Origin: Eledone cirrhosa
Taxonomy: Eukaryota
Direction: 5' to 3'
Length of the DNA stretch: 64,000 bases
Assembly: GCA_964016885.1 (NCBI GenBank)
Contig: OZ024746.1
Coordinates: 58,094,001-58,158,000 of the forward strand
The notes under the pieces are model-generated. The model was not told the origin of the DNA and did not search any database. It saw nothing but the letters and a program-made list of their open reading frames with translations. The stretch's first letter is position 1, and every line of letters starts with the position of its first letter. This document shows, piece by piece, positions 3,039-61,817 of this stretch. The translations under genes and the position numbers were made by a program.

Positions 3039-3093
<55 letters not shown>

Positions 3094-3273
3094 TTGGGGA
3101 GGGTCATATTTGTGTAATATTGCCAGAATTAATAACAGAACACACTCACTGTTTGGTTGGTTTTCGCTTTTCGCTTCTGTGTCTTTTATATCGGTAATCT
3201 AATTTATTCGGTCCTCAATGTTGCCATTGACTGACCAACGGTCAAAAATAATACAGATACAATATAGACACAA

Positions 3274-3319
<46 letters not shown>

Positions 3320-7967: not shown

Positions 7968-8618
7968 ATCAATAAATGCAATGCAGGAATAATCAATCGT
8001 CCTTTTTATCCTTTCTATATTTTACACTTTATATAGCTCTACACATCATCACAGAAGTGAACCTAAACATCGAGTGCTCACCCGGGTGAACCTGCAGTAA
8101 CTCCTAGTTACACCCACTGGATATATATATATATATATAAATATGCATATATATATATACATTTATACATGGCGTGCTGTGTTGTTGCAATTGTGATATA
8201 CAAATTGAAATGAAGAATTAGAAATAGAAGCCAGAACACATCAGTGGTCTACTAGCCACCATAGGTATTTCTTCGCATTAAAGACCAGATACCTCAGGCT
8301 AGAGCGAACAATAACTAAAATACGTTATTAGGATAAAAAGAATTGGGTGGAGAAAGAGAGACAGGTGAACAAACATGAATGGTGAGGCAACCGTTGCCTG
8401 AGGTATCTGGTCTTTAATGCGAAGAAATACCTATGATGGCTAGTAGACCACTGATGATGGATAGTCCTGGGTTCTATTTCTAATCCTTCATTTTAATTTA
8501 TATATACATATCTGAAATAGCGATGTATACATGAATCTATGCATAGTATATTTGGCAATATACCATATGTTTAATTAAAAACATTTTGAAGAGCTTACGC
8601 TATCATTTTTAAAGTAGT

Positions 8619-17609: not shown

Positions 17610-20600
17610 CTATAAAACCTCACGGTATACAATATTCTTTGTTTTTCCATTTGGAGCAAAGGCAAAAAGGTTATTCCGGCTGCCAACTCGGGAACATCCA
17701 ACGTAGAATTGTCCATGTGAGAAACATGGTTCCTCCAGGTGAAGTCCTGCAACAGATAAAGTCTGACCCTGGGACTTGTTGATGGACATAGCAAAGGCAG
17801 CACGAAGGGGAAATTGAGTTCTTTTAAAAGAATAGGGTGCATCCACTTCTGATGTAGTAAGAGTTACCATAGGTATTAAAACATCTTCTCCTTTTCCACA
17901 CCCTGACATAATCGTAGCATAAATAATGTGCTGTGACATCCTATTGACAACAAGGCGTGTACCATTGCAAAGCTTCGGAGGAGTTATATTCCTGAGAAGT
18001 ATAACTGGACATCCTTCCTTGAGAGACAAAATATGTTGAGGTAGACCAGGAATGTCCAATGAATTGAGGAATTCAATGGGATAACTGACCGCATCATGTG
18101 GATCAACATTGGTATCAATAGACTTAAAAGTCATATCATTTCCAGGAAGACTTTCAAGCATTTGGCGATTAATGGCGGAGACAGTGACATTTGTAGGCCC
18201 AATATAGCCCTCTCACACAGCCATGCATGATTGCGGTAATTATCTACCAAGCTGGGAAAAACGGCTGCCTTGAGATCTTCGACAGTGTTAACCAGACAGC
18301 ATATATTGTCGAGTGCAATGTCTCTATGCACATCTGAAGGTACTTTGCCGTCGCCAAGAATGAGAAGGTCTTCAGCAAATTTTTCAGACACAGTATCGCC
18401 ATGCAGTTGAATACGCATGTTAGTGGTCAGACGAAGTGTTGTTATCTGTTGCCACAATGGAGAAGACTTCAGGCAGGCCCGAACTTGATCCGCTCTGGTG
18501 CCCTTTGGAATAACCGGCAAAGTTTGTCGAAAGTCCCCTGAAAGCAAAAGAGTTACACCCCCCATGGTCTCCTGACAGTCTCTAATGTCTTTTAGCGTTC
18601 TATCTAAGGCCTCAATAGCTCCTTTGTGAGCCATGGTACATTCATCCCACACAATCAGTTGGAACCACCGTAGCAGTTCTGCTCTGGGACTATCCTTGGT
18701 GATGTCACAGAGTGGTGTTTCAGCTGATACCAAGTTAAGCGGAAGCTTAAAGGTAGAATGTGCTGTCCTGCCGCCAGGAAGTAGTGCTGCAGCAATACCA
18801 GATGATGCAACAGCTATTGCGATAACTTCATTCTGTCTAACTTTGGCAAGAATAAGTTTAGTCACAAAGGTTTTCCAGTGCCTCCAGGGGCATCAAGAAA
18901 GAAGATACCACCCGATCGATGAAATACATAATCAGTGATAGTGTTGTATGCTAATTGTTGATCAGGAAGTAGTTTTGATTCCATTTGAAACACATATCTA
19001 GCTAGAGCATCGACATCATAAGATGTTTCTTGGATGATGAGAATTGGAATTTTATTAGAATCAGTGCGGTGGGTTTGTGGAAGACCGTATGCTGGCAAGA
19101 CATTCCCACCCATAAGGAAAACCCTGTCCTCTATATCTATAAGCCCTTTATTGTATAAATCATCACTGAAATCTATTTCTATGTCAGGAAGTAGTAGTTG
19201 AGCCTGGTGAAGGAAGTCCTCAGACAGTTGGTTCCGAAACTTCAACCATAATGTGTAGGGATCACAAATGTTACATAAGTGAAGAAGCTTTGCAAAGACC
19301 TCTCGTAGGCTTCCAGCTGAGTGTGATGAAGCGATCTCCACCAAGGTTGCATCCCATCGTGAGTCATCTTCAAGCATTCCACGAGCCAAACAGGCATCTC
19401 TGTATGTAGACCAAACACGATTACTGAAAGTTCTGAGGTCCTGAAAACTGGTCGGTCCTTTGACCTCATGCAGTAGCATTCGAAGATAGAAGCACCTGTG
19501 TTGATTTGGAGGAATCGTATACACTCGCCCCAAGCAATTAGTGAATTTGATTCCAGGAACTCCAATAACTGGTTCGCCAGTCTTTCTGCGACACCATGTT
19601 TTTTTGTTCCATGTGTAGTATGATGGCACCTGAGGATACAGCAATGATTTTGCGAACTCATCGTATTTGCACAGTTTGAAGAATCCAGTTAAAGTTGTCT
19701 CCCTTGGGGTCTGTGCTAATTCAGCGGCATTTTCATTGGTATAATACACCCGTTGACCGTGTTCTAGGTGTACATCTAATTTTACAATTGAAGGGTGCCT
19801 ATCATGTATTGGAAAACCAAAGATTCGCCAAAAGGCCTCGCTACTACTTATGTATCGACCTACTTGGAATTGTGTTACTTCGTCTCTATTATTTTCGTTG
19901 AGTATACCGAACGAAGCAGCGTCAGAACCTTTATTAACATACTTACATATGTATTTGATGCACTTGACGGAGCTACAGAATTCAACATTAATGTGTGCGT
20001 TGAAAGTACTGAGCAGGAGTGGATACTAGGGAATGATCCATCTGTTGTCAACCTCACCATTCTTAACCCTAGCCGTAAAACCTCCATCTTCAGGTCGCCT
20101 ACGTCTATATAATGGGTAGCCATCATTGCCAGTCTGAGTATCGCGAATAAATTGACGGGGAAATTTTTTAGTGCATCTTTTATTGCCTGTAACGCATGGT
20201 AAGTCGGTTCTAAAGCCAGGCCCACATGGACCATGCACCATATGTGCCCTAACTTTCATGTACAAGTCCTTGTCAGTGGAAGGATCTGGTAATTCTGCAG
20301 AGATGATCCTGTCAATGTCGTTAGAACTAACCTTTGTTGTCAGCCAAATAAGAATATGAGCATGGGGGAGGCCCCTTTTTTGCCATTCGATTGTGTACAT
20401 GTCACATTGAACTGGTCCGAAAACCTCCCCTAATTTCATAAGATCCATAAGCTTAAGTAACTTAAGTCGGAATACTCTAGCTGCGAGATCATGTCGGCGT
20501 GTGGCGTTCTGACCAGGAAGGAGTTCGTCCTCAATCTCCTTCCAATTGGGGTTACATGTAAAAGTTATGAATAAGTCTGGCCTACCGTAATGTCGTACAA

Positions 20601-22374
20601 TTGTCATGGCGTCCTGAGTCCTTTCATGCATATATCGAGGGCTTCCCGTGAAGGTAGAGGGCAGAATGCATACTTTTCCAAGACTCTCAGGATCCGCATC
20701 ATTGTTCATTCCATCCCGAAGGTGTATGTAGCTGTCACAACGCAACTTTTTTTGATTGAGTTTGATAAAACACAATCTCTCTGATTCCATTGTTGCACAC
20801 ATGTCAGTTGCATACTGGTTGAAAAGGTCTTGAGAGCGGTGGAGGTGATTAAAACAGTCATCTCGGATCATGAATCGAAATGCATAGAAGTCCTTGCATG
20901 AAACTGTTTTGGTAGAATGAACCTCTGAATTGGTAGAGTTACATTGTGGAATGCCAAAATGGTATCCACCCTCTCCATATACAAAAAGCAGTGGGCATTG
21001 GAGTGCGTCGTATGATCTGTGTGTTTCACTGATCCGTTGAAGTCCGTGGTCGCGATGCTTGATAACAATGTCACGTTTGTTGTTCTGATCACCAGCGAGA
21101 AGTATCGCAACCTCATTCAAAGAAGGTGAATTATAGCGGCCTGCACGTTCTCCAGATGGCCGCTTGTCAGCATCAATGACAACATAGTAATTATCAACAG
21201 GAGCTGTTTCTAATGCATATTTAAAGCACTGAACATAGCTGTTGTGACTATGAAGCATGTCTTGAAGTTCAAAAAGGAGCTCCTGTCTAGTGTCATAGGC
21301 AATTGAATATTTCCTTGTTGCTTGTGGACAGTCAGTTAACTTATTCGTTTTTTTCTTTTGGGAAGGCAAATGTAATTCGCCTTGTAGCTTGTTGATGGCA
21401 GTTGGACATGAAGTAGACCTGGAGAAATCGGGGCTCTTTATTATCTACAGGCTCCAGTGATCCGATAAGATGATAAACCTGACCTTGAACTTTGAAAGTG
21501 GGCATAAATCCACCTTCATATTCATAACTCGATCCAAAAGATGTCATTTGGAAGGCACAATTATAATGTCGAATATCTAGAAGGAAAGCTCTGGAGAGTG
21601 AATGGGTGCCTGTAAGAAGAAGCCTCAATGGCTGTGGTGAATGTCTAGGAAGGTGCAAGTTGACCTTACCATTAGAGCAGCACATTCCGGCTGGTTCGCC
21701 CGGCCACTTTTTAGCTTTGCAAAACTGGCAAATTCCAGACATGTCACCAATTTGAATATGAAGGTGTGTAGCATAATTATTAGCGGGGACATAATTGAAA
21801 GCCTTCAATGACCACCGTGATTTCGCAGCCCTCGAAATACCCCGCTTATTGGCTTTATACTGAAAAACACCCCCCCAGTCGAATAGTTCGGTTACCTGCT
21901 GTCTCCGCTTCTCGCGCAGCTGCAGTAGCAGCCGTATCTCTGCTCTGACGAAGTCTACGTTCAATAGCATTCTCTGCAGCTCGTACAGTTGCAGTAGCAG
22001 CCGCATCTCTGCTTTGACGGAGTTTACGTTGAACATCATTCTCTGCAGCTCGCGTAGCTGCTTTTGCCGTTGCATTTCTTGCAAGCTGAGTTTGACGTTC
22101 CACGTGATTCACTGCAGCACATAAGGATGCAGTTGAAGAAGCATTTCTGGTGCGTCGGAATAAACATTCGTCATCATTCTCAGTTACCTGTGAAGGTGCA
22201 ATGGAAGCAGCATTTCTGTCCTGTTGACAGAGCTGTTGCATTCACTGAACACCCCGCTATTTCAGGCTGTCTAATGCTCGACGACGCCTCAGTCAGCCTC
22301 CTTCTTTTCGTTATCTGAGACCGCGTCAGTCGTAATAAGGGTGTCCTTTTTTTAGGCATCAGGGTGGTGGGCAC
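17610..22374 (-). pseudogene. Helitron RepHel (HUH/Y2 Rep nuclease plus PIF1 helicase), broken by several frameshifts
   Basis: ORF pieces carry CCSNGKV, RPDLFITFTCNP, EWQKRGLPHAHILIW (HUH), KYICKY (Y2, read near 19940-19960), DAPGGTGK (Walker A), IVWDECTM, GDFRQTLPV and FAMSINKSQGQT. Confidence 0.95.
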
Positions 22375-22801: not shown

Positions 22802-23052
22802 CGCCTATATCACCTCTCTGCATGGCTGTCTGTCTGCATGCCTATATCACCTCTCTGAACGACTGTCTGTCTGTACGCCTATATCACCTCTCTGCATGAC
22901 TGTCTGTCTGCACGCCTATATCACCTCTCTGCACGACTGTCTGCCTGCACGCCTATATCACCTCTCTGCACGACTGTCTGTCTGCACGCGTATATCACCT
23001 CTCTGTACGACTGTCTGTCTGCACGCGTATATCACCTCTCTGCACGACTGTC
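22802..23052. repeat. 37-bp subterminal minisatellite of the Helitron, about 7 copies
   Basis: Unit cgcctatatcacctctctgcacgactgtctgtctgca repeated; remnants also at 62236-62305. Confidence 0.9.
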
Positions 23053-23354
23053 TATGTAAACAGAACAAAGGGAAATAACTCGTCACTTACGCTCAAAAAT
23101 CGATACATTAGATTCGATTTCGTCACATAGGGTGAGTCAATTTGAAATATTTTTTTCCCGATGTCTTCGCTAGGGCTCTATGTACAAGTATAGCAATTTC
23201 GGTGCAATTCCGTCAGAGATTCTAAGAGGAGATGTGTGCCAAAAATCGATAGACAGACAGACAACCACAGCTTTATATATAGAGATTATACATACATATA
23301 CATACATATATATATATATATGAATATATATATATATATACACGTATCAACACA

Positions 23355-34545: not shown

Positions 34546-36013
34546 CCACATTTTTCAATATGTATATATATATATTTGGTCTTGGTGTGCTGGAGTGTTG
34601 TAGTCTAATGGTGTTCCTATTTAAGATGGTTTGCTATTTATGTGTGGGGAAGTGTTTTCTGAGTAGGGCAAATAAGCTGCTAGCTGTTATTGTGGATACT
34701 GTTAAGTTGAATTGGGGTTATACCTACTTATAATTCTAGGCCTTCTTACGGCTGGGGCATCCCGATGTGTTATCCATGTATGAATATTTTCTCTTTGAAT
34801 CCGGCACGGATTAGGGCTTAATTTTAGTAATGGTGAGACTCACTAATAATATTTTCATTGACCGAGAGGCGCGATATTCTACGAGAAACGTTCCTGGTCA
34901 GATTCAATTGTACTCCTCGTCGTTCGGTGTTTATGTATATGTGTGTGTGCCTACATTTGTGTAACCTATGAATGGTTGTGCATTCCACAGGTACGCTTAA
35001 ACTTAACGTAATTGGCAGGGAGACCGAGCTTCATACCATGTGTGACAAAGAGATCCTTTCCAATTATAAAAGTCATTAGCGTTTCCGTCTACCCAGATAA
35101 ACTCTCAAGGCTTGGGTCAGATCGAGAGTAACTTAAATGCCACATATTGCGATAACACTTCGGGGATAATGATTGGGAAACGATCTTCAAACAATTCGGC
35201 GATGCCTACGTCTACATAGTGCATAAACAGCTTTTTGCAATGACTATCTGTTTCAGATTTCATTTTTTGATGGATACGATATATTTTACGTCAGTCCGTA
35301 TATCATTGATGAGATGTGTATTCGTGAAGTTATAAATTGCAGACACAATTTGATTAATATGATTAATACCCAATATACGTGTCATATTGTTGGTTTCATT
35401 CATAGATTCTATGTTACTTTAAATAAATAATTGAATTTGCCCAACTATAATACTAATATACTGCATTACAGAGACAGCTAATTTGGAAATGTCATCAATT
35501 TTAATGCGAAAACGATAGCTTGGAATGGAAAAATGTCGCTATATTACAGAAGAACGCACACACAAATAAACATGGGCAAGCATATATATATATATATTAT
35601 ATATATACATACATGTGTGTGTGTCTGTGTGTGTATATTTATATAATATATATATATATATATATAAATTGTTATACTTGGGGATGGTCATATTTGCGTA
35701 ATATTGCCAGAATTAATAACAGAACATACTCACTGTTTGGTTGGTTTACGCTTTTCGCTTCTGTGTCTTTTATATCGGTAATCTAATTTATTCGGTCCTC
35801 AATGTTGCCATTGACTGACCAACGGTCAAAAATACAGATACAATATAGACACAAACACATATATATAGTTTATCAAAGTTTTTTCGTTGCACATCTGCAA
35901 CATCGTCAGTGGTGCTATTGTTTCCTCCTGTTGCATTGCATTGTATTTACTACGCCATCTTTTTCTGAAAAAGATTGCGTAGAAAATACAATGCAACGGC
36001 AAGAAACACTATT

Positions 36014-39780: not shown

Positions 39781-39834
<54 letters not shown>

Positions 39835-39917
39835 GGAATAGAATGAAACGAAATTTCATTTCTCACTCTTAGTACGGCACTTACATAAATGTGCTACCAT
39901 TTACACCAACACATCAT

Positions 39918-39989
39918 GATGTGTTGGTGTAAATGGTAACACAGTGGTCCGGATAACCAGTGATGTGGGCTCGACTCCCATGTACGTCA
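39918..39989 (+). other. tRNA-like sequence (pseudo-tRNA or SINE head)
   Basis: 72-nt cloverleaf: GATGTGT/GTACGTC acceptor, GTGT/ACAC D arm, TGGT-ccggata-ACCA, GTGGG-ctcgact-CCCAT T arm. Several non-canonical positions. Confidence 0.55.
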
Positions 39990-46854: not shown

Positions 46855-46961
46855 ATAAACGGAAAAAATGAAACGAATTTCATTTCTCACTCTTAGTACG
46901 GCTGTTACTTAAATATAAGTATGTATACGTACATACATATATGCATACAGACGTACAGTAG

Positions 46962-47001
<40 letters not shown>

Positions 47002-47416
47002 CATGCACACATATATATATATGTACGCATGGATTCACCAAACATTTATTATAATGCTCGGTTTGTTTGTAAACAAACATTCCGAATTAAGCCGTACAGT
47101 GTCTAGCAACCATCGTTCCTCATTTGTTCAACACTGACAAAGGAACGATGTACTAGTTTCAAACTTATTAGCTATAGTCAACAACGTATACCTTCCTGCC
47201 AGATGGTTGAATGTGTGAAAGTATATACTTTCCTTATGCATATTAACGGCTAAGCAGCCTAATTTACATATCGAGTGAGTTAATCGGCCGGGGTACCGAA
47301 AGCGATAAACGGAAAAAATGAAACGAAATTTCATTTCTCACGCTTAGTACGGCTGTTACTTAAATATAAGTATGTATACGTACATACATATATGCATACA
47401 GACGTACAGTAGTATG

Positions 47417-47468
<52 letters not shown>

Positions 47469-47472
47469 CATG

Positions 47473-47546
<74 letters not shown>

Positions 47547-48227
47547 CATACATGCACACACATACATATGTACGCATGGATTCACCGAACATGTATTATA
47601 ATACTCGGTGTGTTTGTAAATAAATATCCCGAATTAAGCCGTACAGTGTCTAGCCACCATCGTTGCTAATTTGTCCAACACTGACAAAGGAACGCTGTAC
47701 TAGTTTTAAGCTTATTAGATGTCGTCAGCAACGTATACCTTGATGGTTGAACGTCTGAAAGTATATACTTTCCTTATGCATATTAACGGCTGAGCAGCCT
47801 AATTTGCATATCGAGTGAGTTAATCGGCCGAGGTACCGAAAACGATAAACCGATACACATATTTAAGTAACAGCCGTACTAAGAGTGAGAAATGAAATTT
47901 CGTTTCATTTTTTTCCGTTTATCGTTTTCGGTACACCGGCCGATTAACTCACTCGATATGCAGATTAGGCTGCTCAGCCGTTAATATGCATAAGGAAAGT
48001 TTATACTTTCAGACGTTTAACCATCTGGCAGGAAGGTATACGTTGTTGACGATAGCTAATAAGCTTGAAACTAGTACAGCGTTCCTTTGTCAGTGTTGAA
48101 CAAATGAGCAACGATCGTTGCTAGACACTGTACGGCTAAATTCGGGATGTTTGTTTACAAACACACCGAGCATTATAATAAATGTTCGCTGATTCCATGC
48201 GTACATATATATATGTGTGCATGTATG

Positions 48228-48315
<88 letters not shown>

Positions 48316-48370
48316 TACTACTGTACGTCTGTATGCATATATGTATGTACGTATACATACATATATTTAT
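46855..48370. mobile_element. ORF-less HHR-bearing tandem and inverted array (retrozyme-like)
   Basis: Two head-to-tail monomers on minus (46855-47850), then an inverted monomer (47860-48370). One HHR motif per monomer. Confidence 0.75.
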
Positions 48371-49496: not shown

Positions 49497-51225
49497 CTAG
49501 CATTAAAGCCCGGCGTTGCTCGGGGTCAGAAAGTTACCAAAGTTAGTTTGCACCACCCATTTTATGGCAGAACTTTTTTGTCTGCCAGGCACTGGGTGAA
49601 TGCATTGCAGACCTGGACTGCCGAAGCAGGAGCTGCGCCAGCATTGACAATTGTAGTTTCGCCTATGGATATTATCTCTGTGCAAAGAAGTGTTGAAATT
49701 TATTGTTTCACAGTACTTGCGCAACACACGCGTAGACGATGCCAGCCGAACAACAGAGCTGCGATGGAGTTGTTCTGCATGGTTGTCTAATGTGTGTTTT
49801 CTAAATTTATGACAGTAGGGAGAGGTGTGATATGGGGGAGAGTTAGCTGCTCTTTCTAGCAGGTTTAGTGACCTCATAGAGGATATGTTTTCTAAATTCA
49901 AGACAGTAGGGAGTGGTGTGTTAGGGGGGGGGTGTTAGCTGCTGTTTCTAGCAGGTTTAGTGACCTCATAGAGGATATCTTTTATAAATTTAAGACAGTA
50001 GGGAGTGGTGTGTTATGGGGGAGAGTTAGCTGCTGTTTCTAGCAGGTTTAGTGACTTCATAGAGGATATGTTTTCTAAATTTGAGACAGTAGGGAGGGGT
50101 GTGATATGGGGGAGAGTTAGTTGCTGTTTCTAGCAGGTTTAGTGACCTCATAGAGTATATTATTGTGTATAGTAAATAAACTGATACTTCTTTCTTCCAC
50201 GTTCGTTGAGAGGTTTTAAAAAAGATTTATCGCTATTTTTTTTGTTGTTGAATAAATGTATTTGTTGCTTTTGAATAATTGTTGTTTCGTATGAAATGTA
50301 ATAAGTTCTCTTTGTCATTGAAGTAAATAAATGTTTGACCGTTCCACACTCAAAAACAAACGTTCTCTCCCTCTCTCTCCCTCTCTCTCCCTCTCTCTCT
50401 CCGGCGTTCCTAAAGGAAGTGTGTAAGCATGTATGTAGTGGTCATGAAAACCCTCTTGCGTGGTCTCCAAGCTCACAAAGCGGAGGGGACATCAAGTTAA
50501 ATATCAACATTTATTCTGTCCGTTTCATTAAAAGGAAAATTGGAAAGCTTTGAAATAATACAATTGCCACTTTTTTACAGATAAGAGCACTTTTGGATAG
50601 ACGGAGTTGCTCTTGTATAAATGTTCAAAATCGCTGGTATCGTCTGGTGGGAATATAACAATTTCCACTGGTCCTTATTCATAAAAAAAAACATTTATGT
50701 TCCTTTTTTTTAAATTTATATACTTCCTTTCAAGGAATGTATTTATACTTTCAACTGCTTGCAATGGTATCTTTGGAATATCATTAATCAATTTTTTAGT
50801 AATCTACTGATATCAAAATCAGTAGTATATTGAAAAATGGAAAAATAGGGTAGGAAGGGCGTTTCGTGATTTTAAGGGGCAAAAGTGGGCGTTTGGCCGA
50901 AATGGATTCAGAACCTTTGATGTAGGGTATTACCTTGTTTTACCAAGATATTCTACAGCTCTTATCCTTGCCGTTCGACATAAGTATGTGGCGGTTACAC
51001 TCACTGCAGATTCCTCCTTATATCTCTTGCGCACTTCCTATCTATCATTCCTCTCCTTCTCATAAAGAAATCAAATGTATGCAGACCTGGAGAGGAAATG
51101 GGCTCCGTCATGCTGACAAGTTGCCTCCAAGACCCCGTAAGTCAATACGTCGCGCCAACATTCTCCGCCAGGAATTTTGAGTGAACAAAGGAGACACACA
51201 CAAACGCCCCCCCCCCCCAACATAT
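49497..51225 (-). mobile_element. Non-autonomous Helitron of a related subfamily; 5' boundary uncertain
   Basis: a|ctagcattaaagcccggcgttgctcggggtc matches the 3' CTAG end and hairpin of the other two Helitrons. The interior differs, and no clear TC 5' end is visible. Confidence 0.6.
49790..50160. repeat. About 91-bp tandem repeat, 4 copies
   Basis: Unit tctaaattt..gacagtagggag..gtgtg..gggggagagttagctgctgtttctagcaggtttagtgacctcatagaggatat. Confidence 0.9.
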
Positions 51226-51235
51226 ATATATATAT

Positions 51236-53050
51236 ATATTTATTAAAATAACAGATTAAATTGTAAGCAAAGAATCGCTGCTTTCACCCTTGACGGGATA
51301 TTCTGAAACTAACAAATTCAATCTGTAAACGCAGAAGTGGATATTACAAAAAACGTTGCAACCGGAGCAAGACAGGAAGACGATACTTTGGTTCGTGGAA
51401 ACGTTCCCTATGCTAATAAGTAATGGTATAAACATAACATATACTTAGCTACCACATCAAGACGTAAAATATCCACGTATAGATCGTACTATCCGTTAGG
51501 GTATAATGTGGGGCTGTAATACAGGAAAGTTTTGTGCAATTTATGTTTACAAGCCGAAATTGCCTCAGATTTGTTGTTTAAGATGTGGTCTGTAGCGTAG
51601 AGTATGTCCAGGGCCTCAGCGGCGCAGAGGTCACATGGTCTTTTATTTTCGTTATACGATCTAGCTCTAGCTAGGGTCTCCCAGTGTAACTTATATTGGG
51701 TGTGGTTGACTTTTAGACTCCAGATATAAGCTGAAAGTGACGCCATATTCCTTCTTAGAGGGTAAGGAAAAGAATGGGTATGCAAGTAAAGACGCTGCTT
51801 GAATCTATTGGAGGTTAACCCTATGTAGGCCCTACGGGAAGTGGGTGTTTCAACCTTACATTTGTAGACAATGTTACTAGAGAGGCATTTCCCGGATAGG
51901 GGGCAATCAACCCGATTCCTACAATTACAGTTAGTACTAAATACAGGGCTGCACGTGTTCCTACGGCTAGGTAGTTTAGCTAAATTTGAAGCTGTGATGT
52001 TATGTGCAAGGTTAGGAGTCGTAGAGTAAAAAAATTTTATAGTATTTCTATTAAAAATGTTACTATATTTATGTGTAGGGGGAAAATGCTTCGTAACAAG
52101 GGATAGAAAGATCTTAGCCAATGGTGTGGCCACCTCCATATTATATGGTGGGTTATACCATATAATGCGACGGGATATATTTCTTCTAGGTCTATTCTCG
52201 TACTCTGTATATGCCACCTTATCAACAAATCCACTCCGAGCAAGAGCTTCATTGTAATAAGTGGAATGGTCGTTGAAAATATGCTCGTTAGTAGATAGAC
52301 TGGGAAACCTCAACGAAACGTTTCTTACCAGGTTCTTGGTTATAGTGGCAGGATGGTTGCAATGCTTACTTATGTAATTAAGCGTATCATTCGGCTTTCT
52401 ATACGGGTAATACACGCCATTTGATAAATTGAGGGTAACGTCGAGGTAATTAACGACCGAGAGGTCGTGTATGTTGAAGCCTTTATATCTGGAGTCTAAA
52501 AGACAACCACACCCAATATAAGTTACACTGGGAGGTCCTAGCTAGGGCAAGATCGTATAACGGAAATAAAAGACCATGTGACCTCTGCGCCGCTGAGGCC
52601 CTGGAAATACTCTACGCCACAGACCACATACTAAACAAAAAATCTGAGGCAATTTCGGCTTGTAAACATAAACTGCACAAAACTTTCCTGTATTACAACC
52701 CCACATTATAGCCTAACGGATAATACGATCTATACGTGGATATTTTACGTAGCTAAGTATATGTTATGTTTATACCATTACTTATTAGCATAGGGAACGT
52801 TTCCACGAACCAAAGTATCGTCTTCCTGTCTTCCTCCGGTTGCAACGTTTTTTGAAATATCCACTTCTGCGTTTACAGATTGACTTTGTTAGTTTCAGAA
52901 GATCCCGTTAAGGGTGAAAGCAGCGATTCTTTGCTTAAACTTTAATCTGTTATTTTAATAAATATTTGCTCTACGGTTCTTATATATTTGATATATATTT
53001 ATCCTTATCGAGCCCTCTTTGGATTTTAGTCTTCAAATTTATTATTATTA
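51236..53050 (-). mobile_element. 5'-truncated Penelope-like element with inverted pseudo-LTR
   Basis: Minus-strand RT C-terminus and GIY-YIG ORF. 52478-52965 is an inverted copy of about 51236-51730. Tail copies also at 12505-12595 and 53765-53925. Confidence 0.9.
51489..52460 (-). pseudogene. PLE RT thumb, Cys-rich linker and GIY-YIG endonuclease fragment
   Basis: NYLDVTLNL..YYPYRKPN, IIWYNPPY, CNCR..CPLSGKCL, NIVYKC..AYIGLT..FKQR, LSAYIWSLK, CDLC..E. Confidence 0.9.
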
Positions 53051-53300: not shown

Positions 53301-53681
53301 TATTGCAAAATACATTATATATACATCCATATATATATTGCTATTCCAGAGCTCCAATTCTAATTTTTAATTTCTGCCTGACCAACAACCGCTCTGCATA
53401 ATCAGCTCCTGATTATTTACTAGAATTCTATAAGAATATAACATCAGTGATCTCGGTAGACAGGTGGGAGTAGTTAGCCTTGATAAGCTTCAACAAAAGC
53501 GAAACAAGGTCTTGTGGGCTTATCTCCCCTGTTTGCTGAGATCAAAGTAAGTGAATCTGTCACTACTCTAAAAAACAATAGCTTACGGTCTTCAAAATGC
53601 TTTTAATTAAGCATAAAGTGTATTGCAAAATACATTATATATACATCCATATATATATATATTGCTATTTCAGAGGTCCAA

Positions 53682-53756: not shown

Positions 53757-54003
53757 GTATATAGTAATAATAATAAATTTGAATACTAAAATCCAAAGAG
53801 AACTTGATAAGGATAAATATATATCAAATATATAAGAACCGTAGAGCAAATATTTATTAAAATAACAGTTTAAAGTTTAACCCAAGAATGGCCACCTTCA
53901 CACTTAACGGGATCTTCTGATGTTGGCAATTCCCCCTGCCAACCCCGCCCTATATATATATAATAATAATCCTACTACTACTACTAATAATAATAATAAT
54001 AAT

Positions 54004-57000
54004 GGAATGTCATGTGACAGATTCTCACCCAGCAGGTGCTCCCTGGCTCAGCAGCAGGGACCTGGCTGTCAGCCAAATACTGCTGGTGTCAGAGGAAGAA
54101 GAAGAAGAAGAAGGAAAGGGACCAGAACCAACTCGACGAAAGAATTGAATAGGACTGTTATGCAATGTTACCTGAAGAGTAACCCCAAGGAGAAAGGCTA
54201 TAGGAAACGGATGCATAACATCTGGAACGAGATTGGTCTATTTAAATTAGATGAACAAAAATTGGCCGGGCCGGCACGGGTAATAAGAACTAATGGGTGG
54301 ATAAGCGAGCTGGAACTGGAGGAACTGAGCTGACAGATTAGGTTGGAAATGGAAAGTGGAGTATGCCAGGCAAACGAGCCAGTGGGAAATGTAGGTGAAG
54401 AAGTTGAGAGAACGGACGAACCATCCGAAGCAGACAATGATCTGAATGCTGAAATAAATAATTGTTTCTACTTTAGGCACAAGGCCAGCAATTACCCAGT
54501 GCATTACTGGTACTTTATTTTATCGACCCCGTAAGGATGAAAGGCAAAGTCAACCTCGGCGGGATTTGAATGCTGAAATAAATAATACCTGGAACAAAGA
54601 TACGGCCATTGAGGAGATGAATGCTGACGGGCTAGGACAAGATTTGGTTGATATCCTAAACTTAGTGGTAGATGAATTGAACAATGAAAGTGGGAAACCT
54701 ATGAAACTAAGATTTGTAGACAGGAAAAAGTTAAAAGAACCAACAGCTAAGGTAAACAAAGTCATCCCATACCTTAAGGCAAGGAGCCTTCACCAGTGCA
54801 ACAATATCCTCAAAGCAACAGCAAATGCGGTGAGGAAATTACTTGGCATAAAAGAGACAGGAAACAACAAACAAGAAAGATCAGAACCTTGGTGGAAGAA
54901 TCGACTGAATGGTCAAATCAGGGAAATGAGAAATGACATTGGAAAGCTTGGGTCCCTAGTGAATGGGACACTAAAAAACATAGACACTAAAAATAGACTG
55001 GAAATAAAGTACAAAACTAGGAGGAAAAAACTAAATATTATCATAGAGGAACTGAAGCAACGCATTGTAGCAAAGAGTGCAAAAATTAGGCGCTACGAGA
55101 GCAGAGTCCGTCAGTATAGACAGAACCGCATGTTTGACAACAACCAGAAGATGCTGTTTGGACAGCTTGAAGGGAAAGAAAGAGGCAACGACTTGATCCC
55201 TGAGGCGGAACAAACTAAGACATTCTGGAGAGCAAAATGGGAGCAAGATGTTAAACATAATGACCAGGCAGTGTGGATTGAGACAGTACAAAACGAGATT
55301 AGTGAACAGGCACACCAACAAACTCATTTGAGTATCACAGTTGAAGCCATTAAGGGGCAGGCCAAAAAAACTAACCAACTGGAAATCGCCAGGCCCAGAT
55401 GGTGTGTAGGGTTATTGGATTAAAAATTAACATCCCTCCACCCGAACTGACAACCATGATCAATGACTGCTTGATGTCAGATGAGGTACCAGAGTGGTTG
55501 ACAAAAGGTACCACGGTTCTGGTAATGAAAGACGGAATCAAGGGTAATGATGTTACCAACTATAGACCTATCACATGTCTGTTCGTAATGTGTAAACTGT
55601 TGACAAGCATTAACTCTGAGGAAATCTACCATCAACTCCACACAAACAACTTGTTACCGGACGAACAGAAAGAATGCCGAAAGAAGTCCGGTGGTACAAA
55701 GGACCAGTTACTTATTGATAAGATGGTAATGAGGAATTGCAAGAGGAGACACACTGGTCTTGCCATGGGATGAATAGACTACAAAAAGGCATTTGAAATG
55801 GTGCCTCATTCTTGGATCACCAAAAGCCTAGAGATCTTCAAAGTGGCAGATAACATCAGACAGTTGTTGGGCAAAAGTAAGAAGTCCTGGGAAAGAGAGT
55901 TAACATCAGCTGGAGAATCCTTGGGAGGCGTGAAGATCAATAGAGGTATCTTCCAGGGAGATAGTCTGTTCCCTCTGTTGTTTGTCCTTGCCCTGATGCC
56001 CTGACCATTATACTGCGAAAAGTGAGAGCAGGATACATGTTGGGAAAAGGAGAGCTTACCAGAAGCAACGGAATCCAGGTATCAACAGGTGATATGATAG
56101 AGGAAATTGACACTGAAGAAGGATACAAGTATTTGGGTGTTCTGGAGGCTGATGACATCAAGAACAAAAATATGAAGGAATTGATAAGATCTGAATACTG
56201 GAGAGTAAGGAGCGTATTAAAATCACATCTGAACAGCAGGAATGCCATAAGTGCAGTAAATTCCCGAGCTGTGTCTATTATTAGGTACAGTGCGGGAATT
56301 CTGAGATGGAATGCTGCTGAACAAAAAGAAATGGATAGGAAGACTAGGAAGCTATTGACTATCTACAACATGTTCCACAAGAGGAGTGATGTCGATAGAC
56401 TCTGCTTAAGGAGATCTGAAGGTGGAAGAGGTCTTATCAGCATAGAAGACTGTGTTCAGATGGAGAAAAACAACCTACACAAATACGTGACTGATAGTAA
56501 GGAGCCAATGCTCAGAATTGTACTGAAGGAGAGGACAATTAACGAACGGATGTCCAAGGAGGAAATAACAAGAAGGAGCAGCCTTCATGAAAAATCCCTT
56601 CATATTACCGTCTTTGAGAAAACTGAATTCAGGTGTTCCACAGACATAGAACTGGTTGAAAAGAGGAGACCTTAAAAAGGCTACAGAAGGAATGTTAATG
56701 GCTGCGCAAGAGCAGGCCCTCAAAACGAAGTGGTTGAAACACCATATTTACAAGGAGGAAGCTAGCCCACTGTGCACAATCTGTGGAGAGAGAGAGGCGA
56801 CTGTGGCTCACATTGTATCCGATTGCAAACACCTAGCCCAGACTCACTATAAGGGCTGCAGGCATGATGTGATGGGCAGGGTGATCCACTGGCACCTATG
56901 CAAAGTAAACAATTTACCACAATCTGAGAAGTGGTATGAGCATAAACCAGAGTCGGTCATAGAAAACGATCAGGTGAAGGTGCTGTGGGATTTTAGGATA

Positions 57001-57424
57001 CAGACGGACAAGAAACTGGAACACAATAGACCTGACCTGGTGGTTTTGGACAAGGAAAAAAGATCGTGCCTGCTTGTGGATGTGGCCTGCCCATTCGACA
57101 CGAGAGTGCAAGAGAAGGGGGAGGGGAGAAAATTAACCGATACCAGGACTTAAAGTGGGAGGTAAAAAGGATTTGGAACTGCCATGAAGTCAAAGTGGTC
57201 CCGATTGTAATAGGCGCACTAGGTACTATCTCAAAAGGTTTCCAGGGATGGTTAAAGAAAATTGGCCCCGCCACGCTTTTTGGAACGCTTCAAAAGGCAT
57301 GCTTGCTGGGAACAGCAAGAACTCTCCGATACGTCCTGAATATCTGAGGCTGCAGGTAGTGGATTGATATTCATTTCAACAAACTTTCCAGTTAACTAAC
57401 ATCAATGACTGCGACTCAAAGAAC
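54004..57424 (+). mobile_element. Dong/R4-clade non-LTR retrotransposon (RT, CCHC knuckle, restriction-like endonuclease), degenerate, in (TAA)n
   Basis: NYRPITCL, GTKDQLLID, RGIFQGDS, YKYLGV, CTIC..TVAHIVSDC, RHD, RPDLVVLD..VDVACPFD, KINRYQDL, VVPIVIGALG. Flanked by (aat)n at about 53987-54003 and 57425-57442, the known Dong target. Confidence 0.88.
54463..54566 (-). mobile_element. 5'-truncated SINE A inserted in the Dong element
   Basis: Direct repeat tgaatgctgaaataaataat at 54443-54462 and 54567-54586. Confidence 0.88.
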
Positions 57425-58730: not shown

Positions 58731-59332
58731 TGGTACTTATCAAAGCCAATCTGAAATAGAGATATATATATTTTCAGCAAACAGGTGGTGTACTTGTCTT
58801 TGATAAGTACCAATCAGTACGAAACATAGCTCTGTAAGCTTTATCTCCCCTGTTTGCTGATAATTTAATGTAAGTGAGACTGTCACTACTTTAAAACAAT
58901 AGCATAAGGTCTTCGAAATGCTTTTAATTAAACATACAGTGTATTGCAAAATACACTATATATACATTCATATATATATCGCTATTTCAGAGCGCCAATT
59001 CTAATTTTCAATTTCTGCTTGACCGGCAACCGCTCTGTATAATCAGTTCCTGATTATTACTAGAAATTCTATAAGAATCAAACATTCATGATTTTCAGCA
59101 AACACATGGAGTACTTGGCTTTGATAAGTACCAATCAGTACAAAACATAGCTCTGTCAGCTGTATCTCCCTTGTTTGCTGAAAATTTAAAGTAAGTGAGA
59201 CTGTCTCTACTTTAAAACAATATCATAAAGTCTTCGAAATGCTACTAATTAAGCATACAATGTATTTCAAAATACACTATATATACATTCATATATATAT
59301 CGCTATTTCAGAGCGCCAATTTTAATTTTCAT

Positions 59333-59369
<37 letters not shown>

Positions 59370-59376
<7 letters not shown>

Positions 59377-60211
59377 GGAAAAAAGGAAACGAAATTTCAT
59401 TTCCCACTCTTAGTACGGCTGTTACTTAAATATAAGTATGTATACGTACATACATATATGTATACAGACTTACAGTAGTATGTATATATATATATATATA
59501 TACATACATGCACACATATATATATGTACGTATGGATTCACCAAACATTTATTATAATGCTCGGTGTCGTTGTAAATAAACATCCCGTATTAAGCCGTAG
59601 TGTCTAGCAACCACTGTTGCTCGTTTGTTCAACACTGACAAAAGAAGGCTGTACTAGTTTCAAGCTTGTTAGCTATCGTCAACGGTGGTTGCTAGACACT
59701 ACGGCTTAATACGGGATGTTTGTTTACAAACACACCGAGCATTGTAATAAATGTTTGGTTAATCCATACGTACATATATATATGTGTTCATGTATGTATA
59801 TATACATACTACTGTACGTCTGTATACATATATGTATGTACATATACATACTTATATTTAAGTAACAGCCGTACTAAGAGTGGGAAATGAAATTTCATTT
59901 CATTTTTTCCGTTTATCGTTTTCGGTGCACCCGGCCGATTAACCCACATGATATGCAAATTGGGCTACTCAGCCGTTAATATGCATAAGGAAAGTACATA
60001 CTTTCGGACGTTCAACCATCTGGCAGGAAGGTATACGTTGCTGACGATAGCTAACAAGCTTGAAACTAGTACAGCGTCCATTTGTCAGTGTTGAACAAAC
60101 GAGAAACGGTGGTTGCTAGACACTACGGCTTAATACGGGATGTTTGTTTACAAACACACCGAGCATTATAATAAATGTTAGGTGAATCCGTGCGTACATA
60201 TATATATGTGT
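59370..60211. mobile_element. Second array of the same retrozyme-like family
   Basis: Minus arm 59370-59683. Plus arm 59684-60211 is more than one 424-nt monomer (ggtggttgctagac at 59684 and 60108). Confidence 0.75.
60035..60077 (+). ncRNA. Minimal type I hammerhead ribozyme, canonical core
   Basis: ACGTTG-CTGACGA-T-AGCT(aaca)AGCT-T-GAAA-CTAG-TA-CAGCGT: 6-bp stem I, stem II, palindromic stem III, GUA site. Confidence 0.85.
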
Positions 60212-61311
60212 TGGATTTAGAACGTAGCACAATGGAAAGCATCCAGCAGATAGCTAATTCCATACACCAGAGTATAACTGTCACTATCCTCTACCCTTCC
60301 AAACACCCTAAGAATAGATTACCTGTATTAGACACGGAACTCTGGATTAGCACTATAGACGAGAGAGCCCAAATTCTCCCCTCACACTATGCTAAACCCA
60401 TGGCCTCCAAATACCTGATACTGAAAAACTCAGCAATGTCCAGTATTGCTAAATTTAATATTCTGATCGCAGACTTGGTACGAGTGATGAAGAACGTGTC
60501 CCGCATGTGCGACCCAACAGAAATGGAAAGAGACATCCAACACTTCATCACCTGCATGCAGTTCTCTGGCTACAACCAAAGAGACAGAGTCAGAGTATAC
60601 GAAGGAGCCACGGAGAAGTATAAGACCCTCATAGAACTGGACATAAAAGGAATTTGCCCATTATACAGGAGCAAATCATGGAATAGATTAGATAGGGCTA
60701 GACATAAGATAGGGAAAGCCACCTGATGGTACGACAACCAGAGATACCAGAGTGTCATGTTTGTGGATGCTACTCCTGAAGGAAAATTAGCTAACCAGTG
60801 TAAAAAGGCCCTGAGAAAGACCCACTTAAAGATTAAGGTGGTAGAAAAGCCAGAAACCACCATAAAATCCCTGATCAGCAAAACCTACCCTTTTACGAAA
60901 ACCCACTATACTAATAGGAAATGTATCAAATGTAAGGTAAACCCCCGGATAGACTTTAAAACTAGAAACGTAGTCTATAGCATAAGATCTACAGAGGGTA
61001 CTTGCAGAAACATGACAACAACATACATAGGCGAGACAGCTCGTAGCATAGGTGAAAGGATAGACCAACACTGGGGGGAACTAAAAGGACGAAAAAACGG
61101 ATCAGTACTATACGAACATGCCAGACAACAACATGACGGTAACATAGACAACATAGAAATTAGAATAATATCTAAACATAGAAATGACCCAGCAGATAGG
61201 CAAATCAGAGATGCCAGTGAAATAGAACTTAGAAGGTCAAGGATAAACAGAAAGAATGAATGGAATAACAACAACACCCAAACAAACAACACTGACCTAA
61301 GAGAAGTATAA
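60212..61311 (+). pseudogene. PLE RT C-terminus and GIY-YIG endonuclease with one in-frame TGA
   Basis: ORFs 60175-60726 and 60757-61311 are in the same frame and separated only by TGA at 60724-60726. Confidence 0.85.
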
Positions 61312-61571
61312 ATAAATAAAGAGATAAATGAATAAATAAATACATACACAAGCACAATAACAACAAATACATATAAACACACACTAGTAAAGATAGAATA
61401 CATTAACCAATACACAGTAACCCAAACACGAACACACATCAAACAAAACACTATACACACACGCAAACGCATGCGTAAAGAAGACAAATAAAATAAACAA
61501 ATAAATAAATATATAAACAGACTAAATAAAGATGGTTTAGAAAATACAATGCAACGGGAGGAAACAATAGC

Positions 61572-61612
61572 ACCACTGACGATGTTGCAGATGCGCAAGG
61601 AAAGAACTTTGA
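61572..61612 (+). ncRNA. Degenerate hammerhead downstream of the PLE ORF; better copy at about 35872-35915 minus
   Basis: CTGACGA-TGTTGCA(ga)TGCGCAAG-GAAA. The copy reads CTGACGA-TGTTGCAGATGTGCAAC-GAAA. Confidence 0.55.
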
Positions 61613-61817
61613 TAAGCTATATATATGTGTTTGTGTCTATATTGTATCTGTATTATGTTTTACCGTTGGTCAGTTAATGGCAACATTGAGGACCGAATAA
61701 ATTAGATTACCGATATAAAAGACACAAAAGCGAAAAGCGAAAACCAAACAAACGGTGAGTATGTTCTGTTATTAATTCTGGCAATATTACACAAATATGA
61801 CCCTCCCCAAGTATAAC

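Follow-up and report, generated by a model that had tools for sequence, protein, structure and literature searches.

The repeat array at 46855-48369 of the window, by which we mean the whole 64,000-nt stretch of Eledone cirrhosa DNA analysed here (contig OZ024746.1, positions 58,094,001 to 58,158,000), belongs to an abundant family that is very probably a PLE-mobilised retrozyme. The explanation that we favour, and consider likely, is that a protein-free element of ~424 nt is written into (TA)n by the RT/GIY-YIG enzyme of a PLE, with circularised monomer RNA as the likely template. The first-pass annotation had proposed a retrozyme family, and this is supported by tandem units devoid of ORFs, covariation in the hammerhead, fixed 3' ends and, at the sampled loci, the lack of a PLE ORF in register with the unit.

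The locus is a single insertion within TA-rich simple sequence, in which two minus-strand head-to-tail units and one plus-strand unit stand back to back. Its features are as follows:

46855..47852, minus strand: left arm, two head-to-tail units and tail; the 3' end is site B, against TA-rich sequence
46855..46912, minus strand: tail between site A and site B, ~56 nt, with a hairpin; absent from the other end of the insertion
46859..47309, minus strand: unit 1, 451 nt; 93.7% identity to the family majority
47146..47186, minus strand: hammerhead of unit 1; C3U, G8U and changes in helices I and II; predicted dead
47221..47270, minus strand: promoter-like block of unit 1; TATA and an upstream element that bears one change
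47310..47850, minus strand: unit 2 (541 nt), in which the (TA)n is expanded at 47413-47550 and 7 nt are deleted 5' of the ribozyme
47693..47733, minus strand: hammerhead of unit 2, carrying G12A and a disrupted helix II; predicted dead
47761..47810, minus strand: promoter-like block of unit 2 (20.0 bits); its upstream element resembles that of the host U6/MRP/tRNA-Sec genes, and a TATA follows 42 nt downstream
47855..48369, plus strand: right arm, one unit (unit 3); its 5' end meets the 5' end of the left arm, its 3' end is site A, against TA-rich sequence
47957..48006, plus strand: promoter-like block of unit 3; both elements mutated
48041..48081, plus strand: hammerhead of unit 3, whose helices are intact but whose core has C3U; cleavage would be expected after 48076

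Much of the initial description of the locus stands. The seamless join reported near 47309 lies at 47309/47310, and the same unit-to-unit junction has 4,695 exact matches in the genome (control 0); each monomer carries one hammerhead motif, as claimed, and the reported lack of an ORF agrees with a longest stop-free frame of 67 codons in a trimer. The head-to-tail arrangement applies to the two minus-strand units but not to the third, which is inverted. The changes thought to inactivate the cores near 47143 and 47692 are present in both, but the third core is also altered (C3U, a change that by itself lowers hammerhead activity), and none of the three is canonical. All units carry older-subfamily marks and are ~93% identical to the family majority: the copy is an older-subfamily fossil with all three cores damaged. 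The lengths of the units (451, 541 and, for unit 3, 518 nt) differ mostly through an internal (TA)n, as had been noted, and the idea of a family carrying its own microsatellite survives in part. A short hairpin-forming AT-rich segment does belong to the unit, but the long (TA)n at this locus is read as local slippage after insertion, because units elsewhere measure 417-434 nt (10th-90th percentile of 53 complete units from other loci) and their internal TA tract has a median span of 64 and a 95th percentile of 92 nt (272 copies), making the locus an outlier.

The family is large. The canonical 41-nt motif has 4,370 exact matches in the genome (reversed control 0) and a 27-mer across the cleavage site has 8,365 (control 0); counts of this kind are lower bounds, and the family thus comprises at least 8,365 copies, with 10,831 further matches for the related motifs of sister families. 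A typical unit is ~424 nt long with 38% GC and no frame above 67 codons, and its predicted fold, taken singly, is far better than that of shuffled sequences (z -8.4), partly by virtue of the AT-rich hairpin. In copies selected by their ends, rare changes affect core and non-core positions alike (1.6% and 1.8%), as expected for neutral decay after insertion. Common variants are found at none of 11 core sites as against 57 variants at 321 other sites. Scars of A-to-I editing were sought among the rare alleles and are not supported (A>G 101, T>C 81; p 0.21). Among the sequencing runs listed as holding the family, none is recorded as RNA. Family pieces in contigs of four sequencing runs of unknown kind, and a contig from another organism that spans a unit junction, were left out of the evidence. 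Within the window, a solo tail fragment of the retrozyme lies against (TA)n at 39830-39890.

Related repeats are present as well. A sister retrozyme family (L026, L074, L169, L293-L321) has a unit of 466-469 nt and sites homologous to A and B, shows compensatory changes in the ribozyme and in the tail hairpin, and forms arrays of at least 30 units; at 468 nt it is 66% identical to the present family over tail and ribozyme, with the core kept. A third hammerhead repeat, of 309 nt and devoid of the promoter block, was found at L083:9-500, and diverged relatives (72-80%) occur in the window at 58899-59314, 53316-53675 and 8511-8603.

The family motif is a predicted type I hammerhead, and between sister families it shows compensatory changes. 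Scanning with hammerhead models, as the first-pass annotation had advised, brought no match at cut-off among the curated Rfam models (best HH9, 18.5 of 52 bits, E 0.18), and the assignment therefore rests on the core letters and on covariation: 6 of 13 pairs show changes in both partners when subfamilies and the sister family are compared, in an 11-row alignment that represents three or four lineages only. The core is intact in 135 of 159 copies selected by their ends, and the C3-G8 pair is described as required for cleavage in a PLE hammerhead (PMC11167929, as far as its accessible text goes). The isolated hammerhead folds no better than shuffles. Helix III consists of one pair and a palindromic CUAG loop; a helix of this weak, palindromic-loop type favours cleavage as a dimer in the portion of PMC4209133 consulted, which makes a dimer fold the probable form for cleavage here also.

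Upstream of the ribozyme, in the sense direction, each unit holds a block resembling the promoters of host small RNA genes. In seven host genes (U6, U6atac, RNase MRP, tRNA-Sec) the upstream element lies at -77 to -80 and the TATA at -31/-32; the matrix was built from these 7 of 14 host loci, chosen for the element (3/5 U6, 1/6 U6atac, 1/1 MRP, 2/2 tRNA-Sec). The element of the unit scores 15-20 bits against 12.7-27.8 for the host genes in leave-one-out scoring, and none of 280 background windows or 300 shuffled sequences reached the score of the block. The spacing between element and TATA is 42 nt, some 5 nt short of the 46-48 nt of host genes. The block recurs in the sister family and is absent from the third family and from PLE-A, a PLE described below. 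Judged by its sequence, the block is real, and it is a putative promoter. With this TATA, transcription would start at the ribozyme's 5' arm, but Pol III should be halted by a T6 run in the tail ahead of the next ribozyme. The host type 3 Pol III genes (L332-L334, L362, L368-L370) share an octamer-like word at -78 and a TATA-like box, and the host Pol II snRNA genes (L347-L403) have words at -89 and -57 and a TATA-like box, visibly unlike the type 3 Pol III elements. The promoter of newt satellite 2 is snRNA-like. A Pol II snRNA promoter in the unit, scored on the pattern of three host elements at -89, -57 and -30 (U1/U2/U4/U5), was rejected, as it reached 7.7 bits against 18.5-34 for host genes, a level attained by 40 of 280 background windows.

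The ends of the insertions carry the link to PLEs. While 5' ends are scattered, 3' ends are fixed at two sites ~56 nt apart, each followed by (TA)n, with 3,308 exact matches for site B and 2,731 for site A; the cleavage site lies 210 nt upstream of site A, and neither A nor B coincides with it. Partner arms were scored in samples from the first 95 Mb of one contig, with 90 B-anchored and 70 A-anchored ends among the first 100 places listed, reduced to 84 and 69 by removal of duplicates. The inverted partner of a B end stopped at A in 44 cases (8 of them called from short motifs, 2-3 doubtful), elsewhere in 9 and at B in 0, with no partner in 31; that of an A end stopped at B in 31, elsewhere in 5 and at A in 0, with no partner in 33. 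Fold-back insertion, as claimed in the first-pass annotation, is accordingly the rule of the family, with an inverted partner arm at 89 of 153 sampled ends. A was paired with B in 75 of the 89 scored two-armed cases, and A-A and B-B pairs numbered 0, in A- and B-anchored sets that overlap and share several insertions; a choice of site made independently for each arm would yield about half homotypic pairs. The 46855 insertion itself pairs B (46855) with A (48369), and the sister family shows the same pairing in its one insertion with both ends scored (L300/L301).

Two autonomous PLE families, PLE-A and the related PLE-B, end in a comparable manner: a short end was paired with a long end, 45-60 nt apart, in all of their ~8 and 3 two-armed insertions, ~11 in number and read by eye. 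PLE insertions have been reported to include an inverted, 5'-truncated copy, often with the tail at one end only (Craig 2021, PMC8557442), and a purified PLE protein to cut and extend both strands, starting at two internal RNA sites that bound the tail (Frangieh 2024, PMC11167929), in the parts of these papers available to us. The simplest reading of the A/B pairing is that one cDNA starts from each site, on either side of one break. PLE genes are likely to paste the retrozyme, since its mirror-image insertions end like those of PLEs, with one fixed site per arm, and the A/B rule also accounts for the PLE tail usually standing at one end only. The family provides a countable genomic signature that ties a retrozyme to PLE enzymes independently of pLTR homology and, with its 424 nt, two start sites and (TA)n target, a small substrate that the established in vitro PLE assay could use.

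A second insertion of the family in the window adjoins such a PLE:

59371..60211: second insertion of the retrozyme family; minus arm 59371-59683 ends at site B, plus arm 59681-60211
60215..61812, plus strand: PLE-A, a PLE of autonomous type truncated at its 5' end; it has the end of RT, a CxxC linker, GIY-YIG and a pLTR and hammerhead of its own

The plus arm of the second insertion has a canonical hammerhead at 60036-60076 and abuts PLE-A (60211/60215), whose two-site ends are as in the retrozyme; PLE-A is a candidate helper only. We call it a PLE by motifs recognised in translation, and Pfam returned for the PLE ORFs a weak RVT_1 match only (E 0.005). CX2-5CxxC is a motif used for calling PLEs in the consulted part of PMC8557442. 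At 59371-61812 the plus arm of the retrozyme joins the middle of the PLE-A RT with no (TA)n between them, the retrozyme B end lying on the left and the PLE-A short end on the right. The junction is either a template switch by the helper, which is possible but hardly the safer guess, or a later PLE-A insertion that deleted target DNA; deletions of this kind occur at other 5' junctions. Further pLTR fragments of PLE-A lie in the window at 35676-36011 (with a short inverted piece) and 3092-3278, and the PLE-A ORF at L210:502-3117 and L201 has a long low-complexity, Asn-rich insert between the N-terminal part and the RT. The 3' part of a second PLE type, with thumb and GIY-YIG, lies at 51489-52541 on the minus strand; we presume it to be Hydra-like, and many related families occur in the sampled loci.

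Such proximity, the most serious challenge to the retrozyme reading, raises the question of whether the unit is the pseudo-LTR of an autonomous PLE outside our sample and the arrays its truncated tandem remains, a reading to which we give a small probability. Xenopus retrozymes are homologous to pLTRs according to the accessible text of 10.64898/2026.07.22.740005, the second array directly adjoins a PLE RT, a GIY-YIG ORF lies 400-800 nt upstream of the repeat and in the same sense at several loci, and our survey spans 16 GIY-YIG clusters only. Against this, the family shows thousands of exact unit-to-unit junctions, and an in-register continuation of the consensus into an RT/GIY-YIG ORF, which the first-pass annotation had set up as the refuting outcome, was seen in 0 of 229 sampled loci, some of them overlapping. 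The neighbouring ORFs come from different families and join the repeat at differing registers (unit positions 191, 213, 261 and 300); PLE-A has its own pLTR and hammerhead, unrelated to the unit, with no detectable similarity between the unit and PLE-A, its 5' region included; and among the 29 other PLE-A loci RT runs on across the junction point in 27 and different sequence stands there in 2, a retrozyme repeat lying within 1.5 kb at only two. No autonomous PLE with a related pLTR was present among PLE-A and the other UTRs compared. From PLE-A's own pLTR, the other PLE-A loci and the unrelated joining registers it follows that the unit is not the pLTR of any of the 16 sampled GIY-YIG families, and an ancestral pLTR origin can still be accommodated. 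Still less probable, to the point of being remote, is a satellite, or a fold-back DNA element, that spread through DNA recombination and whose hammerhead-like motif arose by chance: higher-order arrays do exist and Rfam cut-offs were unreached, but such an origin sits badly with fixed 3' ends beside scattered 5' ends, with an A/B rule common to PLEs and with compensatory changes in the ribozyme.

The remaining rival keeps the element and the PLE enzyme and differs in the template, which would be an uncleaved linear multimer transcribed from a young array, the hammerhead being vestigial or serving another step and unit number being restored by DNA-level duplication. We regard this as unlikely, though the most credible of the rivals, and hold a circular template to be probable. 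The cleaved linear monomer is not the main template, because 5' ends are scattered (10 of 218 at the cleavage site, 5.7 expected, p 0.06, which is no clear footprint of self-cleavage) and most arms read on beyond that site (87 of 92 and 13 of 15); template jumping at that site was discarded, its indel rate equalling the median elsewhere. Units within an insertion diverge less (3.5% in 76 tandem pairs, 3.9% in 50 arm pairs) than units paired at random (6.8% in 3,686 pairs), and share rare alleles in 17/76 tandem and 12/50 arm pairs against 149/3,686 random pairs. Were the template a mixed linear multimer, the first units of the two arms should match each other and differ from the second unit. 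In 34 triples, a few from duplicated loci, 95 sites were derived in all three units and the two-of-three patterns numbered 8, 12 and 7, with no excess of first units alike and second different (8 vs 12 and 7). At L323, nine units on two arms carry one locus-specific haplotype. The uniformity is imperfect at L322, where one variant occurs in 6 of 7 plus-arm units and in no minus-arm unit, and at L324, where two subfamilies are mixed within one arm, both of which suit the linear template; it is imperfect also at the 46855 locus, where C3U is common to units 1 and 3 alone. One haplotype per insertion favours a monomer circle and does not prove it, as gene conversion or a linear transcript of a uniform young source array would give the same picture. 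In the purified anole PLE system uncleaved RNA is the main substrate and the ribozyme dispensable, in the consulted part of PMC11167929, and 1 of 9 Xenopus dimers was cleaved in vitro, in that of 10.64898/2026.07.22.740005. DNA-level growth of arrays, seen here, also agrees with the linear template, but the median arm is 349 nt, below one unit, so that linear copying alone would shorten arrays each round, and the families have conserved core and helices.

Arrays of more than 20 kb with a 428-bp period at C1 51.77-51.80 Mb (L131-L133, L325), and of 4 kb at L134, contain higher-order repeats and are retrozyme insertions turning into satellite, grown at the DNA level. Because of these long arrays, unit number alone is uninformative on rolling RT. 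A dimer circle behind the alternating array at L134 was considered and dropped, as the alternate core is undamaged and the changes in common seem to postdate insertion.

On the circular template that we favour, the cycle might begin with a transcript that the promoter-like block of the unit itself initiates close to the ribozyme's 5' arm, a step to which we give an even chance. Read-through into the next unit would allow cleavage at two hammerheads, probably as a dimer (PMC4209133, in part), and the cleaved monomer could be ligated by a host ligase (PMC7229834, in part) into a circle of ~420-430 nt, which corrects the 420-550 nt predicted initially. A PLE enzyme would then cut both strands of (TA)n, with one cDNA starting at A and the other at B, as the ends and their pairing indicate. 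Each cDNA would run a variable distance, as the arms do, often through the cleavage site and past one unit, and the two far cDNA ends would be joined into the fold-back junction seen in the insertions. The copies then decay neutrally, their internal TA slips and some arrays amplify at the DNA level. A bolder version, which we offer tentatively and think rather doubtful, is a self-sufficient RNA-circle parasite. Each unit would have captured a U6-type promoter and would carry a ribozyme that depends on dimers and a hairpin tail gripped by the Penelope RT/EN dimer, with two RTs rolling one circle from A and B, one on either side of a double-strand break in (TA)n. If it were true, the strict A/B pairing would prove in vivo that PLEs in general prime at two sites and on two strands, and the 59371-61812 junction would record a template switch that identifies PLE-A as the helper.

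The window holds other repeats besides. Frameshifted ORFs at 17610-22108 (minus strand) are presumably a Helitron-like Rep/helicase, and a broken non-LTR element at 53908-57153 (plus strand), with RT and a C-terminal restriction-like endonuclease, is one that we take to be R4/Dong-like. A tRNA-like match of 37 bits lies at 39918-39989, and tandem repeats of 91 bp and 37 bp lie at 49795-50160 and 22802-23053.

By its sequence the element qualifies as one of the metazoan non-LTR retrozymes defined by Cervera and de la Pena (2020; PMC7229834, here and below in the portion consulted), and it would constitute a new family among known non-LTR retrozymes that behaves like a non-autonomous PLE. In common with the metazoan retrozymes it has a short, ORF-less tandem unit with one type I hammerhead each, a GC content of 38%, thousands of copies, dispersed and free of LTRs, and a highly self-paired predicted RNA, and it shares with the axolotl motifs a weak helix III, a palindromic tetraloop and a U-U at the base of helix II. 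The unit is slightly longer than the 170-400 nt given there, and two-armed insertions, fixed A/B ends, (TA)n targeting and an internal U6-type element set it apart from those retrozymes as described. RNA circles were demonstrated for them and are predicted for the present family. A promoter followed by a hammerhead in tandem units is also found in Schistosoma Sm-alpha, which is Pol III SINE-like, and in newt satellite 2, which is Pol II (both in the accessible part of PMC6765202), while the block here resembles the host U6/MRP/tRNA-Sec element with TATA. For animal retrozymes, both the mover and the copying of circles are presented as proposed, not shown, in the available parts of PMC7229834 and 10.64898/2026.07.22.740005. 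The open-access literature, which defined our search (subscription journals and Repbase/Dfam being outside it), yielded no paper on this family or on two-armed retrozyme insertions.

With EN+ PLEs, as far as the consulted parts of PMC8557442 and PMC11167929 describe them, the family shares tandem and inverted arms, a tail at one end, (TA)n targets, two internal RT start sites and extension on both strands; it differs in having no ORF and a tail of ~56 nt rather than 30-40 nt. The strict pairing of one site per arm counted here contrasts with the lack of a strand difference in start site in vitro (PMC11167929). A further parallel is offered by the Xenopus and vertebrate non-LTR retrozymes (Li, Clavereau, Pollet 2026, 10.64898/2026.07.22.740005), whose sample, in the text accessible to us, includes no mollusc: they too co-occur with PLEs and have been proposed to be PLE-derived non-autonomous elements, the link to PLEs being homology to pLTRs in Xenopus and the signature of insertion in the family described here.
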